64,000 nt of DNA from Octopus sinensis (lineage: Eukaryota): positions 68,634,001 through 68,698,000 of the forward strand of contig NC_043007.1 of assembly GCF_006345805.1 (NCBI RefSeq), read 5' to 3'. Position 1 is the first letter of the stretch. Each line of letters begins with the position of its first letter. Position numbers and translations under genes: made by a program. Under the pieces are notes generated by a model that saw only the letters and a program-made list of their open reading frames with translations, made no database searches and was not told where the DNA came from. This document shows, piece by piece, positions 1,724-57,750 of the stretch.

Positions 1724-2112
1724 GATATTATATTATATTATATATATTGTAACTACAGTAATCCATCGACTATCGCGGGTGTTACGTTCCAAAAGCCCCG
1801 CGATAGATAGAAACAGTATTATATTGTATATTTTTTCTAATTATATTTATAATTTGCATATATTTATTTTGCTATAAATGCAAAACAACACCATCGAGGA
1901 ATCGATGTAAGCTTAAATAATAAACCGCGATATGACGAGGGATTGCTGTATCTTGCATCTTATATATATATATATATATATAAGTTGAGTGTAGAAATTC
2001 GGGGTGAGTACTTGATAATTATAAGCACCGGTGTATACCGTTTGGTGGGTAGTAGGGTGGAGTAAATTGATCAAAATAAAAATAAAAATAAAGACATGAG
2101 GCGAAGGATTCA

Positions 2113-2190
2113 GCGGTACATATGTTTCGGGCCTTTATTAGACAGATTCATAACAAATCATAATGTATGTCTGTGGCCTTCTTCAGCCGC
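2113..2190 (-). ncRNA. Type I hammerhead ribozyme, left arm
   Basis: Minus strand: GCGG-CTGAAGA-A-GGCC...GGCCC-GAAAC-ATAT-GTA-CCGC. Confidence 0.8.
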
Positions 2191-4515
2191 GCACAACAGC
2201 TTCCACAAGGACATGTGTACTTCCTAAATTCTTGGTTGGGGATGCAAATCTTCTCGTTCCCGTACGACATAATGCGGCAGCAGCATCGAATTGAATCGTC
2301 CATCTCTTTCCTCTCTCAATGTAGAATGAGGAAACTTGGATGTGAGGTAATGTAAATAAATAATAAATACGTATATAGAGGTGAAGATGGAGGGGCGAGA
2401 GTTCGGGACGAGGGATAAAAAATATAAAATAATATAAAATAATATGAAAATGTAGAGGATAAAGATATAAAGAGTTGTAAGGAGATGTAAAGGGGGTATA
2501 AAGAAATATAAAGAAATATAAATAAATGTAAAGGCATAATGTTGTAAAGTAAAAATAGAAATGGAAATAATAGTAAAAGAAGTAAAAGAACCTGATAAAA
2601 ACATGATAAAAGTGTAAAAGAATGTAAAGATAAGGGATGTATAGAGGTCGCGGACCCAGCATGGTGGTCAGGAGATGATAAAAACTTAGTTGTAGAACTG
2701 TCAGTAAATTAACGGTTTCGTCGTAAATCAGAGCTGATGAGAGTTTAATCTGGTTCCTTGAATTAAATGGACTTTCAGTACATACATATCATCATGGGTA
2801 CATACACCCACATACACGCGTACATATACGTCTCCAAGTCTATAAGCAAACACACGCACTCGCGTGTAAAACACGTACATAAACACACACGCACCACACG
2901 CACGCGCGCACACACACATACATACAACAGAATAGCCGCATATTAGACGGACATTACGCGCGTACACGCTCACATGTATATACGCGTGCCCCTCACTACA
3001 TACGTACACGTATATGCCCACGTCTCTAGGTTAGGTATAAGATATAAAGGATGTGTATAAGAACATATGTAAAGAATCCCGTACTCATGTTAATACGCGC
3101 ACGCACACACGGCTGTGTGTCCGTATGTGCGTGCACATATATATATTCACATACACACACAGAGACACACGCGCCATGGGTATAGTCATAAGATATCGAA
3201 GTATGCATGTACATATACGCGCGCGCATATGTATGTATGCGCATACACACGTACGCGGACGCTCGGATACTCAAAAAAGGGATCCATAGGAAAGTAAATA
3301 AACATATATAGAGGTGTAAAGCGATTTTCTTATTTTATACTGTATTTTTTATTTCTAATCTTTACCCTACCCTCATTTACCCTAATTTATCGCTTTACAC
3401 CTCTATATATGTTTATTACTTCCTATGGATCCGCTTTTTGAGTATCCGAGCGTCCGCGTACGTGTGTATGCGCATACATACATATGCGCGCGCGTATATG
3501 TACATGCATACTTCGATATCTTATGACTATACCCATGGGCGCGTGTGTCTCTGTGTGTGTATGTGAATATATATATGTGCACGCACATACGGACACACAG
3601 CCGTGTGTGCGTGCGCGTATTAACATGAGTACGGGATTCTTTACATATGTTCTTATACACATCCTTTAATATCTTATACCTAGACCTAGAGGACGTGGGA
3701 TATACGTGTACGTATGTAGTGAGGGGCGCGCGTATATACATGTGAGCGTGTACGCGCGTAATGTCCGTCTATATATGCGGCTATTCTGTTGTAGTATGTG
3801 TGTGTGTTGGCGCGTGCGTGTGGGTGCGTTGTGTGTTTATGTACGTGTTTACACGCGAGTGCGTGTGTTTGCTTATAGACTTGGAGACGTATATGTACGC
3901 GTGTATGTGGGTGTATGTACCCATGATGATATGTATGTACTGAAAGTCCATTTAATTCAAGGAACCAGATTAAACTCTCATCAGCTCTGATTTACGACGA
4001 AACCGTTAATTTACTGACAGTTCTACAACTAAGTTTTATCAATCTCCTGACCACCATGCTGGGTCCGCGACCTCTATACATCCCTTATCTTTACATTCTT
4101 TTACACTTTTATCATGTTTTTATCAGGTTCTTTACTTCTTTTACTATTATTTCCATTTCTATTTTTACTTACAACATTATGCTTTACATTTATTTATATT
4201 TCTTTATATTCTTTTACCCCATTTACATCTCCTTACACTCTTTATATCTTTATCCTCTACATTTTTATATTATTTTATATTATTTTATATTTTTATCCCT
4301 CGTCCCGAACTCTCGCCCCTCCATCTTCACCTCTATATACGTATTTATTTATTTACATTACCTCAACATCCAAGTTTCCTCATTCTACATTGAGAGAGGA
4401 AAGAGATGACGATTCAATTCGATGCTGCTGCCGCATTATGTCGTACGGGAACGAGAGATTTGCATCCCCAACAAGATTTAGGAAGTAAAACATGTCCTTG
4501 TGGAAGCTGTTGTGC

Positions 4516-4593
4516 GCGGCTGAAGAAGGCCACAGACATACATTATGATTTGTTATGGAATTGTCTTAATAAAGGCCGAAACATATGTACCGC
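4516..4593 (+). ncRNA. Type I hammerhead ribozyme, right arm
   Basis: Stem I GCGG/CCGC, core CTGAAGA(+A), stem II GGCC/GGCC with inner AGACA/TGTCT, GAAA, palindromic stem III ACATATGT, GUA site (predicted cut after 4589). Confidence 0.85.
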
Positions 4594-4636
4594 TGAATCC
4601 TTCGCCTCATGTCTTTATTTTTATTTTTATTTTGAT

Positions 4637-4679
<43 letters not shown>

Positions 4680-4681
<2 letters not shown>

Positions 4682-4866
4682 TGCTATTAAGTTAGACATG
4701 GCCTGGACCAATCTTTGGTCGAAACAAATCTAAGTTTTATATATATATATATATAATATATATTGTATAATTGTTTATATTATATATAATATATATATAT
4801 ATATATAGGTGCTATTAAGTTAGACATGGCCTGGACCAATCTTTGGTCGAAACAAATCTAAGTTTT
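4680..4866 (+). repeat. Two identical 59-bp units (4680-4738, 4808-4866) embedded in (TA)n
   Basis: GGTGCTATTAAGTTAGACATGG...GGTCGAAACAAATCTAAGTTTT occurs twice. Confidence 0.9.
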
Positions 4867-4909
4867 ATATATATATATATAATATATATATAATATATAT
4901 TGTATAATT

Positions 4910-4949
<40 letters not shown>

Positions 4950-5502
4950 TATAATATATATATATATTACATTATATATGTCATTGTTGTAAAGTGGGTT
5001 CCTCCCACTGGTGTAATGTGTGACTACCGTTGTACTGTAATTGCTGTTTTTCGCTAGTACTCACAATAGTTACTAGTCATCAGATGCCGTTGAATCCCTT
5101 CGTACAGGAATACGCTAACTTCTAACTTACTATGGCTGATAGCACCACAAGACACCGATTCGAACTGTTCGTCTCTCGACCTACTCTTGACGACTGGCTA
5201 TTGTTTTATATATAATGGCTTTACCTACCACTTTTTCTCGGGAGGGGTATACACTTTCACTCTAATACGTATATATATATGTTTGTGGTCCTAGGTGTCG
5301 TTGTGCGTGTGCGCTTGTGTGCATGTATGTATATGTGTATGGCTGTTTCTGTCTATCTCCCTACCATCGCTTCATAACCGGTGTTGATGTGTTTAAGTCC
5401 ACGTAACCTAGCGGTTCGGGAAAATTTATTCATTCGAGTAAAAATTCTTCAAGACGGCACCCCAACATGTCTGTAGTCTAATGCCTAATACAAGTAAGAG
5501 AT

Positions 5503-11921: not shown

Positions 11922-12092
11922 GGTATGAACGCGAAACCTAACGGGTAACCCATTATATCACTCAAAAAGCGTACCTATTCGTTTAGATCACCAGAGAACT
12001 AAACCCCTCATATTCTCCCTCTACGCACACACATATATATATTCATGTATATATATATATATGTGTGTGTGTGTATATATATATATATTTAT

Positions 12093-12556
12093 ATTATTAC
12101 ATTATATAAAAGGGCTTAGTAAAATAAATTACTTTGCCGCATACTGAACTCATTAGAAATAGCAACCAAAGAAAACTTTTTTAAAACTATTTCTAATACT
12201 TAAAGAAAACCTCTCTCATATAGTGTTTGTTCAATTCAACTCACGCAAATATGGGGGTAGAGACATTAAAAAATCAAGTGCACTTGATTTTTTAATGTCT
12301 CTACCCCCATATTTGCGTGAGTTGAATTGAGCAAACACTATATGAGAGAGGTTTTCTTTAAGTATTAGAAATAGTTTTAAAAAAGTTTTCTTTGGCTGCT
12401 ATTTCTAATGAGTTCAGTATGCGGCAAAGTAATTTATTTTACTAAGCCCTTTTATATAATGTAATAATTTGAATTCGCCTTAAATGGTCCCTTTGCATAC
12501 TGAATACTTGGTGAAATTGATTAATTAATTAATTTTACCCTCAATTGTTGAAATTA
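12093..12556. mobile_element. Spacer-less palindrome (188-bp arms, centre 12280/12281) plus one-sided tail, in (TA)n
   Basis: 12093-12280 is a near-perfect reverse complement of 12281-12468. Right arm and tail resemble 45870-46020 (CTGCTATTTCTAAT..GTATG.GG.AA, TACTTGGTG.AATTGAT). Confidence 0.9.
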
Positions 12557-20923: not shown

Positions 20924-22209
20924 CAGGGTGCGATAGGTAAATTTCCCCATTTTATTTTTTTAATTTCGCACATGCACATTGCTTACTTCTGATTTTGTTG
21001 AATAGGGTATAGTAGGGTCAGTTGGGCACCGTCTGTGAGAAAAGCAGCACCATGGCGCAAATCTCTCTGCCAAAAATCTGGAAACGACATACTGTACTGC
21101 TTGGCATTCGAACCGGAAGCTCCAATACAAACATTTCAGAGTGTTTGGATGTCAATCTGAGGATAGTGCGGAGGATTCGGAAAGAGTTGCCTGACTCTCA
21201 TGGGGATAATGAAGGTACAGCAGCTCGGAAAACTCATTTTGATTATTCTGATAGCAAAAGAATTCCTGAATTTGTTGGCGAGCTCGAGGCCATAATGGAC
21301 AACGATCCCTCCAAGTCAATCATGTCCATCACCAGGAACATGGGAATGTCTAAGTTTCTTATCAGACAGGCAGTGCATACAGATATTCGGTTTTCCTCAT
21401 ACAAGATGAGAAAAGGCCAATTTTTATCCCAAGCCATTAAGAACAAGAAGAAAGATCGCGCTCGGAGGCTTTTGAACAAACTCAAGCATCCCCTCCATCC
21501 GAACATGCATTGTTTTTTTCTCAGACGAGAAAAAATTCTCCCAGAATCAGAACACACAGAACAACTGTTAGCTTGCCATGTCCCTAAAACATGTACCAAG
21601 GGTGATAAAAATCAAATCATCTTGTTTGGAGTGATATCTAGTGATGGCGATATTATGCTTCCATTTATCTTCCCACGCAGCCTCATACTCAACACCGAGG
21701 CCTACACCAAGTGCCTGGAGGAGATGGTACTGCCCTGGATCAAGAGGGTGGCTGTTGGAAGACTCTATGTCTGGCAACAGGACTCTGCACCATACCACAC
21801 AATCAGGAAAACCCAGTCATTGCTGTCAGACAATTTCTGCGACCACATCACCTTTAACATCTGACCACCTAACTCCCCAGACTGCAATCCTCTTGGTTAT
21901 TATGTGTGGGCGCTGTTGAGCGAGAGATCAACAAAACTCCTTGTAACACAAAAGATGAACTGATGGCAAAGATTACGGCAGAATTCAGCAACTTAAACAA
22001 GGAGATCTTCCGGAAGAGTTGCAGGAGATTCCGCAGTCGTCTGGAGGCTGTGGCTGACGCCAATGGCGTTTTTATTGAATAAATTTACCCTTTAGTATTT
22101 CAAGATATTTTTATGTAATTTTGGTAAATAAATATATCTATAAAAATGAAATGTCAGTGTTATTTTCATTCCTGCGTAATTTAGACGATGATTTATTCAC
22201 CGTACCCTA
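20924..22209 (+). mobile_element. Near full-length DD37D (maT-type) Tc1/mariner transposon
   Basis: TA-CAGGGTGCGATAGGTAAAT at the left end and ATTTATTCACCGTACCCTA at the right end form imperfect TIRs. Confidence 0.92.
21052..22082 (+). pseudogene. Transposase pseudogene (DD37D)
   Basis: YVWQQDSAPYHT...I*PPNSPDCNPLGYYVW: 37 residues between the second D and the third catalytic position (D mutated to G). In-frame stop at 21862 and frameshifts. Confidence 0.92.
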
Positions 22210-24680: not shown

Positions 24681-25130
24681 AATATCCTCTCTGACCCATG
24701 TCACAGAAAGCTACCCAATCGGTTACTTATGTTCTTTAAATTATATATTTTCCCAAAGATTTAATGTTATTACATAACCATTTATTGTAATTTGCATATA
24801 CATGTATAGTTAATTCTTACCAAATTCGTTTATACACACGTACATACCCACGTAGACACTCACACACACTTGTAAGCGCATGAATGCTCATACGTCACAT
24901 GTGTATTCCAGTTCAAGCACACTGACTCACACACATACATTCGCACATTTACTACAACGACTTAAATCCTTCACTCAATTTTATGACACTGAGTTATTTC
25001 ACCTGGTCTCTCACCAAACGTTTTGTAACGCCTACTCATAACGTTTTCCTTTTATATTTATTAATATTTATATATAAGTATACATATATATATGTGGTGG
25101 GTGCGTGTATATATATATATATATATATAT

Positions 25131-25284
25131 AATACAGTGTACACTTAAACAAATCAAGAGGTTTCCATCATATGAATCCTGTACGTTAGAAAGAACAGGT
25201 AAAGTCCAAACTTTAGCTGTTCTTTCTAGCGCAAAGGATTCCTATCATGGAAACCTCTTAATGTGTTTAAATGTACACTGTATT
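25131..25284. repeat. Imperfect palindrome (about 75-bp arms) adjoining (TA)n, with one-sided tail
   Basis: AATACAGTGTACAC..AAGAGGTTTCCAT..AGAAAGAACAG pairs with CTGTTCTTTCT..ATGGAAACCTCTT..TGTACACTGTATT. Confidence 0.85.
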
Positions 25285-25924
25285 TTATATGAATGATATA
25301 TATCTATTGACTAATTTTTCTGTACGCTAGGCCACTGGTAGTAAAAATTTCTAAAATCTTTATTACCCTGATATCAAATATATATATTTCTTTCCTGAGC
25401 GTCAACAATACTTTAATTGTTCCACGTCCTGCGTTGCTGTGGGTTTTTTTCTCTTTTTTTCTGTGTTTTCTTGTTTGGATTAACTATATATATATATATA
25501 TTTATATATGTATGTAAGTATGTATGTATGGTATGTATGTATGTATGTATGTATGTATGTATGTATGTATGTATGTACGTATGTATATGTATATGTATTT
25601 TCAGTGATGTCATTATTTTGGGTTTTTCGATGGTTTATTTTGATTCTTTGTTCGTATTCAGTGCTTAACCAAAGTTGGAAGCTTTGAAACGGAAATGTCG
25701 AACAATGGAAATGGAAATGAGTGCTCAACACCGCGTTGGTGGATATAATTTCTTTATTTGTGAATTAAGACTACCAGTTTTTTGACGTTAAGAAAAGTAG
25801 GAAAATATCTTTGTGCCTTAACAATTTTTCAAGCCCATGACATGGAGAAAGATGTTCACTTTTACTTTGGAAAATAGTTTTCCTCCCCGCAAATATCAGG
25901 CTTTGTGCCTATTATTATAATAAT

Positions 25925-30433: not shown

Positions 30434-30672
30434 CCGGAGTAAACACATAAATGTGAAACAAGGTGGAAAAAAGAGTACTTAAATACCAGTGGTAGAGTAA
30501 TATGCTTTATTTAAAGCAGCAGAAAATTCATCAAAATCTGTTACTCTGAGTTTCTCGTTGCCGTTCATCAGACAGTTTTTGACAGTTTTTCTAGCAAAAA
30601 CAGTCTGATGAACGGCAACGAGAAACTCAGAGTAACAGATTTTGTTGAATTTTCTGCTGCTTTAAATAAAGT

Positions 30673-30675
<3 letters not shown>
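30433..30675. mobile_element. Fold-back element with two back-to-back hammerheads (30538-30575 minus, 30601-30638 plus)
   Basis: CTGT-CTGATGA-ACG-GCAA-CGA-GAA-ACTC-A-GAGT-A-ACAG. Arms about 30500-30580 and 30596-30675, tail 30433-30499, TA flanks. Confidence 0.85.
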
Positions 30676-30706
<31 letters not shown>

Positions 30707-34543: not shown

Positions 34544-34703
34544 CGTAGGAGTGGCTGTGTGGTAAGTAGCTTGCTTACCAACTACATGGTTCTGGGTTCA
34601 GTCCCACTGCGTAGCACCTTGGGCAAGTGTCTTCTACTATAGCCTCGGGTCAATGAAAGCCTTGTGAGTGGATTTAGTTGGGGGAAACTGAAAGAAGCCA
34701 ATC

Positions 34704-34789
<86 letters not shown>

Positions 34790-35012
34790 TATATATATAT
34801 ATACATATATATATATATGATTAGCTTCTTTCAGTTTCCGCCTACTAAATCCACTCACAAGGCTTTGATTGACCCGAGGCTATAGTAGAAGACACTTGCC
34901 CAAGGTGCCACGCAGTGTGACTGAACCCAGATCCATGTGGTTGGTAAGCAAGCTACTTACCACACAGCCACTCCTACGGCATTAGACTGTTTCTAATTAT
35001 CTGCTGATCTTC

Positions 35013-45595: not shown

Positions 45596-45651
<56 letters not shown>

Positions 45652-45655
45652 GTAT

Positions 45656-45753
45656 TCTACGCTGAAGAGAAAAGAAGTTTTGGTAAGGTAGAATTATTTA
45701 ATATTAATTCTTATGCTTTCCTAAAACTTGATTTCGAAACGTGCGTCCGTAGA
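45656..45753 (+). ncRNA. Type I hammerhead ribozyme, intact
   Basis: TCTACG-CTGAAGA-GAAA...(long stem II)...TTTC-GAAAC-GTGC-GTC-CGTAGA. Predicted cut after 45747. Confidence 0.92.
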
Positions 45754-46222
45754 TAACTTAAAATTGTATGATAGATTGCCGTCAATTCATTCTCTCTTAC
45801 CTGTTTGTGTCTGCCTCCATTGCTGTTTTTACTGAGATCTCCTTTTTAGTAGAGAAATAGCTATAACTCTTTGACTGCTATTTCTAATTCGGTATGTGGT
45901 AAGGCAATTCGTTGCTAAATCCTTTATTGCTTAGTATTACTTAAATTTTCTCGAATGAGGCTTTACATCCGAAGACTACTTGGTGTAATTGATAATTATT
46001 CCAAATTAATTAATTTCACCTTCATTATTACGGATAACCATATTATCTCAGTAGATGACCACAGCATCTTTTTTGCTACACGCGGTGGAAGGGGCTGTGA
46101 CACATCTTTCATTCACACATTGATTTGGTGATACTAGTTGCGGATTCTAGCTCGCTCTGATACTGAGTTGAGTTGGTGCCTTCTAGTATCTCAAAATTAT
46201 ATATCATTTATGATTATAGTAT

Positions 46223-46321
46223 TCTACGCTGAAGAGAAAAGAAGTTTTGGTAAGGTAGAATTATTTAATATTAATTCTTATGCTTTCCTAAAAACTTGAT
46301 TTCGAAACGTGCGTCCGTAGA
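46223..46321 (+). ncRNA. Type I hammerhead ribozyme, intact, second copy
   Basis: Same motif. Predicted cut after 46315. Confidence 0.92.
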
Positions 46322-46708
46322 TAACTTAAAATTGTATGATAGATTGCCGTCAATTCATTCTCTCTTACCTATTTGTGTCTGCCTTCCAATTGCTGTTTTT
46401 ACTGAGATCTCCCTTTTTAGTAGAAGAAATAGCTATAACTCTTTGACTGCTATTTCTAAATTCGGTATGTGGTAAGGCAATTCGTTGCTAAACCCTTTAT
46501 TGCTTAGTATATATATATAGATATATAGATATATATTTATCTCTCTATTTCTCTATCTATTTATCTGTCTGTCTGTCTGTCTGTCAGTCTGTCTGTCTCT
46601 CTCTCTGCACACACTCACACACACATATACATATACATATGCATATATGTATGCATACGTATGTATGTATGTACATATATATATATATATATATTATGCG
46701 TTTGTGTG

Positions 46709-49004: not shown

Positions 49005-49249
49005 ATATTTACAGGATTAAATAAAAAGACAACAAACGGAAAATTCGACATAGCTATATATATATAGATGTTTTCGATCTAGTTTGAATTCTTTGCCATT
49101 AAATTTGAAAACTTTGCCATCAAATTTGAATTCTTTGCAATCAAATTTGAATTTTTTGCAATCAGATTTGTTTGCAAAGAATTCAAATTTGATTGTAAAG
49201 AATAAAAATTCGATGGCAAAGAATCCAAACTAGATCGAAAGCATCTACA

Positions 49250-49291
<42 letters not shown>

Positions 49292-57433: not shown

Positions 57434-57478
57434 TATATATATATAAATATATTTATATCTATACATATAGTTAAAATA

Positions 57479-57750
57479 ATTTGCCAAACTAACGTGGCAG
57501 TTGAATGTTAGTGTTATTTAACCCCAGGAAACATCGTCTCCAGCTGGCTATATGACACACAATCCGTATCCTTATATTTTCGAAAATGTAAGGAAGCAGA
57601 TTGTGCATCGTATAGCCAGCTGGAGACGATCTTTCCTGGCGTTAACTAACACTAATATTCGACTGCTACGCTATGTTGGCAAATAATCGTTACTCTAGAG
57701 TACTGTTACTAAGTGTCACTTGTGGAGAGATTTGCAAATAGAAATTTTCT
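57479..57750. mobile_element. Palindrome (57479-57684, centre 57581/57582) plus one-sided tail; carries the HHR-associated hairpin module
   Basis: CCAGGAAACATCGTCTCCAGCTGGCTAT pairs with ATAGCCAGCTGGAGACGATCTTTCCTGG. Similar to 33291-33360 and 36004-36076. Confidence 0.8.

Follow-up and report, generated by a model that had tools for sequence, protein, structure and literature searches.

A 2.6-kb palindrome in the genome of Octopus sinensis, bearing a hammerhead ribozyme motif (HHR) near each outer end and lying between two (TA)n runs, raises the question of whether it exists for the sake of the RNA hairpin that it could form or is the footprint of a transposition event. Within the window (the whole 64,000-nucleotide stretch of DNA that was analysed), the locus is read here with good confidence as two 3′ pieces of one abundant HHR-carrying repeat, set head to head within (TA)n, most likely by a single retrotransposition event of a Penelope-like element (PLE). 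As an insertion of PLE type it is likely ordinary, apart from the unusual length of its arms and tail, and it is probably not a purpose-built RNA hairpin. The features of the locus, with the evidence for each, are as follows:

1961..1982, no strand: (TA)n target microsatellite, left (sequence)
1982..2065, minus strand: 3′ tail of the left copy, 84 nt of family sequence, absent in the right copy (contigs in four of four runs)
2066..3325, minus strand: left arm, inverted copy of the element's 3′ part, its 5′ end 63 nt short of that of the right copy
2113..2190, minus strand: candidate type I hammerhead motif of the left copy (descriptor scan)
3326..3388, plus strand: “spacer,” read as the 5′-most 63 nt of the right copy (contig depth in X1, X2, and X3; loose ends at 3325, 3326, and 3368)
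3389..4640, plus strand: right arm, tail-less and non-coding copy of the element's 3′ part, TG/CA-rich and then CT/T-rich
4516..4593, plus strand: candidate type I hammerhead motif of PLE type, right copy (descriptor scan)
4639..4679, no strand: (TA)n target microsatellite, right (sequence)

An initial annotation of this DNA had described mirror arms, an outward-facing HHR near each outer end, a tail of 84 nt on the left side only, and (TA)n on both sides, and each of these elements was recovered. When the arm 2066-3325 is aligned with 4640-3389, 1231 of 1274 columns are identical (96.6%), the differences amounting to 7 substitutions and 33 gap events, nearly every gap being 1 nt. The tail (1982-2065) separates the left arm from the TA run beside it and is without a second match in the 64-kb window. 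The outer flanks of the two arms are unrelated and are not mirror images, and no long direct repeat occurs inside the palindrome. Directly to the right of it lies a 128-nt tandem repeat (4661-4936) with an identical 59-nt core between TA runs; this core was considered as a hammerhead and rejected, as our own scan found a small stem followed by GAAA, without CUGANGA.

To what kind of sequence the arms belong can be read from public sequencing data. Part of the stretch was present in 20 of the 22 runs listed (9 studies, three organisms), and half or more of it in none. A query composed of the tail, the left arm, the spacer, and 52 nt of the right arm was compared with the contigs of four public runs (X1, X2, X3, and X5), in which 2152, 959, 533, and 57 contigs, respectively, fell on one arm plus spacer, the contig pieces measuring 76-199 nt among those listed. 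On the strength of these counts and of the shortness of the pieces, the palindrome arms belong to a very abundant and variable repeat family. All four runs have contigs over the tail, from which loose ends behind 2048 continue into the arm, and in one X5 contig (TA)n is joined at 1992; the tail is thus family sequence that is contiguous with the arm in other copies. In X1, some contigs jump back from 2047-2048 to 2005-2010, a short tandem duplication within the tail. Summed contig depth, which is no copy number, is 9- to 33-fold lower at the centre than at the HHR end in each of the four runs. This slope fits 5′ truncation and is partly due to subfamilies that share only the HHR end and diverge just beyond the hammerhead, as the loose ends at 2196-2218 indicate. 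Some contigs of X1 and X5 carry different letters before 2723, which suggests a longer variant of the high-complexity block 2680-2770 that would be missing from the present copy. Sequence patterns (26-nt HHR) had no match among metagenome and viral contigs. No description of this particular family was found in the literature searched, which included text passages of a repeat annotation of Octopus vulgaris that reports 31 recently active Penelope-like families (PMC13282606).

The same contigs bear on the nature of the spacer, which had first been described as CCCTA-rich. The quoted motif is present at 3361-3385; a separate CCCTA element did not hold up. The 63-nt spacer contains one CCCTAA, presumably the host's telomeric unit, and the tail contains none. 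The spacer is covered in X1-X3 (X5 lacks cover over 3354-3402), at a depth of about the same order as that of the inner arm ends in X1 and X2. Beyond 3325, where they depart from the arm, five X3 records match the reverse complement of the spacer's right end, and in one X3 contig (a single contig of a single run) the spacer is preceded by non-arm letters 5′ of 3326. Read from these contigs, the spacer belongs to the right copy, of which it forms the 5′ part, and in the family it leads into the right arm, which would place the true join at about 3325/3326, where two copies with ends 63 nt apart appear to meet head to head. At this join, microhomology of at most 1-2 nt can be read, within an error-prone T run. 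No contig bridging 3325/3326 or spanning the stretch occurs among the 32 listed of 3721 pieces. A telomeric array or loop in the spacer was rejected on the grounds of the single CCCTAA per 63 nt, and a telomeric PLE deficient in endonuclease (EN) (Athena/Coprina) was rejected as well, as no reverse-complement telomeric repeats lie beside the HHR and the spacer is 1.1 kb from it.

How the two arms are related was judged from 40 of the 43 contig variant rows, 18 of which had more than 75% of the depth against the left arm in each covering DNA-like run. At 15 of these 18 places both arms carry the same rare letter (one of the others is a left-arm error and two are at gaps), so the arms are likely to derive from one template or one very young source. 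The caveat, raised at the outset, that differences between the arms mostly reflect sequence error fits the contigs, in which 10 of the 40 differences appear in the form of the right arm, no variant row being available for the remaining 30; most arm gaps are likely to be consensus errors in both arms. Gaps between the arms occur at 2.6 per 100 nt, against none in a 388-nt hairpin of the same window, and the palindrome stretch is therefore poorly polished or thinly covered. Such gaps are not peculiar to the palindrome, since a direct-repeat HHR pair in the window has 2.1 per 100 nt. A fold-back read yields a second half that is included in its first, and by our own reasoning a single such read cannot be the source of the palindrome, because the left copy has the tail and no spacer, the right copy has the spacer and no tail, and the flanks are unrelated.

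The hammerheads were sought with a descriptor in any block order on both strands of both arms, and the only ones found are of CGS order, at 4516-4593 (+) and at the mirror position 2113-2190 (-). In 1000 dinucleotide shuffles of the arm, the descriptor had no match. The right motif comprises a 4-bp stem I, a CUGAAGA core at 4520, one extra A before G10.1, a 4-bp stem II, a G10.1-C11.1 pair, GAAA at 4578, and a palindromic 2-bp helix III, with a predicted cut site 3′ of A4589. In the left motif, the 3′ strand of stem II is longer by one C, a place at which the contig rows listed hold no variant. Both calls rest on the descriptor, since Rfam detected neither: the whole window gave no match at gathering level, and the 51 weak matches obtained at E ≤ 10 over 1900-5200 include none to a hammerhead, belonging instead to miRNA and snoRNA models, far under their cut-offs and mostly on TG/CA-rich sequence. 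Free folding of the HHR region did not yield the ribozyme fold (z 0.18 and 0.49); this is expected of a dimer-type hammerhead motif, and the z-scores are therefore not counted as support. Core-like words on opposite strands near 2700-2745 and 3975-4020 had suggested a second or permuted hammerhead, which the scan ruled out, and a SECIS reading of the same places was dismissed by eye only. Non-circularly permuted hammerheads (SGC, CSG, or GCS; PMC10085705) were likewise rejected, the CGS order being the only one found. Each strand would thus carry one sense, dimer-dependent hammerhead, and the ribozyme is predicted to be silent at this locus.

If the locus were read through, its RNA would bury the hammerhead in duplex, as would that of any such insertion; the computed energy of the hammerhead paired with its antisense is -131 kcal/mol, vs. 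-7 kcal/mol for the ribozyme fold. Published cases of editing include palindromic repeats in frog and Penelope in lizard, and octopus is described as having a high dsRNA potential (PMC5625713); editing here, if found, would accordingly be expected rather than new. Variant places of A>G and T>C type number 3 and 7, respectively, in X5, tentatively taken to be an RNA run, and 3 and 5-8 in X1-X3; contigs cannot reveal editing, and these counts speak neither for nor against it. If transcribed, such palindromes would add to the dsRNA load behind high cephalopod editing, a general link that has already been made (PMC5625713). Nothing in the analysis indicated a selected role for the hairpin, which would be a by-product of insertion, possibly edited by ADAR if transcribed.

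Insertions of PLEs are described as 5′-truncated, many of them adjoined on the 5′ side by a truncated copy in inverted orientation, with a 30-40-bp tail at one end and a bias to microsatellites that hides the TSD (PMC8557442). The remark in the initial annotation that such insertions often carry an inverted partial copy agrees with this anatomy. The corresponding traits are present here: an inverted 5′-truncated copy at the 5′ end, joined head to head with ends 63 nt apart; a tail of element sequence at one end only (84 nt, left); a type I hammerhead motif of PLE type in both arms; and a (TA)n target on both sides, in which any TSD would be hidden. As a route to this arrangement, a PLE endonuclease-reverse transcriptase (RT), acting in trans or supplied by a longer parent element, would cut both strands in the TA run, and each cut strand would prime reverse transcription on the same RNA. 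An outer start site would yield the left copy with its tail and an inner start site the right copy without it; both cDNAs would stop early, 63 nt apart, and would then be joined. Two primings would account for the tail on one arm, the 5′ extension on the other, and the common rare letters without an extra step, and this route takes slightly more than half of the probability given to a genuine insertion.

The remainder, somewhat under half of the genuine-insertion case, goes to a variant that lies within the PLE explanation and does not add to it. In this variant, a tail-bearing cDNA would fold back near its 3′ end, with the 63 nt as the loop, and copy itself, and the endonuclease would trim the tail from one end during integration. 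Taken by itself, we regard this snap-back as possible, on the less probable side. In its favour, the short distance between the two 5′ ends, just 63 nt in an element no shorter than 1.4 kb, is better accounted for than by two primings, and the common rare letters would follow without further assumption. Self-priming has been proposed from palindromic junctions (PMC3846280), and PLE tails have been ascribed to EN-mediated resolution (PMC8557442). However, snap-back needs the extra trimming, a plain fold-back from either target strand being unable to put the tail and the 5′ extension on different arms, and the microhomology at the join is no longer than the 1-2 nt mentioned above, again in an error-prone T run.

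Two further explanations do without an insertion of this kind. An assembly artefact is unlikely; it would require that a long read folding back within one copy be linked wrongly, by way of the repeat, with a differently flanked and almost identical copy elsewhere. The high rate of 1-nt gaps between the arms and the lack of a bridging contig among the pieces listed speak for it, a fold-back would likewise leave a short single-copy stretch at the turn, and the family is abundant enough to mislead an assembler. Yet each half contains sequence that the other lacks and the outer flanks show no mirror symmetry, which excludes a single fold-back; two faults and a second locus with the same 15 rare letters would be required, the published one-sided tail would be mimicked by chance, and the direct-repeat HHR pair has a similar gap rate. 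Less probable still, and to our mind very improbable, is that the whole palindrome is the mobile or selected unit, either foldback- or MITE-like or retained to supply ADAR or Dicer with dsRNA and at the same time to silence the ribozyme. In MITEs and foldback DNA transposons, symmetric terminal inverted repeats define both ends; here, the left end extends 84 nt further in family sequence than the right, and this identity was rejected. The depth of the spacer, close to that of the inner arm ends in X1 and X2, and the several other self-palindromes of the window would suit a whole unit, as would the strength of palindromic repeats as ADAR targets and the richness of octopus in dsRNA potential (PMC5625713), but the ends are asymmetric, with a tail on the left only, depth falls steeply towards the centre, and one X3 contig has the spacer preceded by non-arm letters.

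The preferred reading of a PLE insertion has points against it as well: the gaps between the arms, the lack of a bridging contig among the pieces listed, a tail longer than those published, and the coding capacity of the palindrome. No Pfam family was found at E ≤ 1 in seven ORFs of the arms, nor any remnant of RT or GIY-YIG, and all frames are broken. The palindrome is filed as PLE-mobilised and not as an autonomous PLE, and the copy appears truncated. The proposal that it is a long non-coding Penelope-dependent element stands in part: the Penelope-like anatomy and the lack of coding capacity in at least 1.4 kb bear it out, and the family as a whole may either lack coding sequence entirely or constitute the 3′ portion of a larger, autonomous element. 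We consider it doubtful that the family, abundant and measuring at least 1.4 kb, is non-coding throughout and Penelope-dependent, with each insertion made by a PLE RT that primes on a single RNA two times, once from either target strand. If true, kilobase palindromes would be a genomic record settling how the inverted ends of PLEs arise, the origin of these ends and of the tails being still called open (PMC8557442), and, in a genome subject to heavy editing, a self-contained supply of long dsRNA comparable to Alu pairs. In an abundant family with long arms, the tail-bearing arm and the distance between 5′ ends could be counted across copies, which would separate two primings from snap-back. 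As a known PLE footprint, the single locus is of minor importance, and its value is that of test material.

Several other repeats were noted in the window. A second, unrelated HHR family occupies 45647-46510 (+), where two direct copies (45647-45937 and 46214-46510) that are 97% alike lie between TA runs with a period of about 567 nt, each with a type I motif that has a 6-bp stem I (cores at 45662 and 46229); this could be a retrozyme-like partial tandem able to form a dimer ribozyme. At 12087-12474, a near-perfect 388-nt hairpin without spacer adjoins TA runs and has 184 of 186 inner pairs matching, without gaps. A weak similarity (69-78% over 42-96 nt; E between about 1e-3 and 1e-5) links the outer part of this hairpin to the 3′ part of the HHR unit at 45.6 kb, and the hairpin is possibly another inverted PLE stub or a MITE. 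Palindromes are common within the 64-kb window: four more self-palindromes (25109-25307, 30500-30676, 49055-49275, and 57476-57687) measure about 180-220 nt and are 77-92% symmetric, and TA runs adjoin all but the last. At 34544-34978, a dispersed SINE-like repeat is present as two inverted copies around a TA/TG tract (88% symmetric). A 282-aa stop-to-stop frame at 21016-21864 (+), which by eye looks like a remnant of a Tc1/mariner-type transposase, gave weak Pfam matches only (DUF3461, E 0.08; HTH_23, E 0.12).

Among known systems, the motifs at this locus resemble the minimal type I hammerheads of PLEs (Cervera and de la Pena, 2014; PMC4209133), which are described as weak as monomers and which share with them the short helix I, the extra nucleotide before G10.1, the G10.1-C11.1 pair, and the palindromic helix III. 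The loop II region is long in comparison (42 nt). Pairs of HHRs on opposite strands are reported from Schistosoma at distances of 100-700 bp, whereas those of the palindrome are about 2.3 kb apart (PMC4209133). Metazoan non-LTR retrozymes (PMC7229834; bioRxiv 10.64898/2026.07.22.740005) are likewise non-coding, equipped with type I HHRs, and probably PLE-mobilised, but they are head-to-tail tandems of units of about 300 nt with at least two HHRs on the same strand. The head-to-head arrangement of more than 1.3 kb seen here, with one HHR per strand and no long internal direct repeat, led us to reject that identity. Naiad PLEs are described as having no canonical HHR (PMC8557442) and were set aside by this criterion, an HHR of canonical (CGS) order being present.

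A closer likeness is offered by Pen2a of Adineta vaga, with which the locus has in common an inverted, 5′-truncated copy that is slightly shorter (the inverted pLTR of Pen2a is 37 bp shorter than the direct ones), a one-ended tail, a microsatellite target, and an HHR near the 3′ end (PMC3846280; PMC8557442). Unlike Pen2a, the palindrome has no ORF and no direct pLTR, its arms measure 1.25 kb against about 0.2 kb for the pLTR, and its tail of 84 nt exceeds the 30-40 published for PLEs (PMC8557442). For the purified Poseidon protein of Anolis carolinensis, a predicted dimer, cleavage and extension of both strands at AT-rich targets have been shown in vitro, with two RT start sites bounding the tail and no need for hammerhead cleavage (PMC11167929). 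The pLTR and tail of Poseidon overlap the start of its ORF, whereas no notable ATG-led frame follows the HHR here; by analogy, the AT-rich target, the cutting of both strands, and the two start sites of Poseidon would match the two-priming route proposed for the octopus locus.
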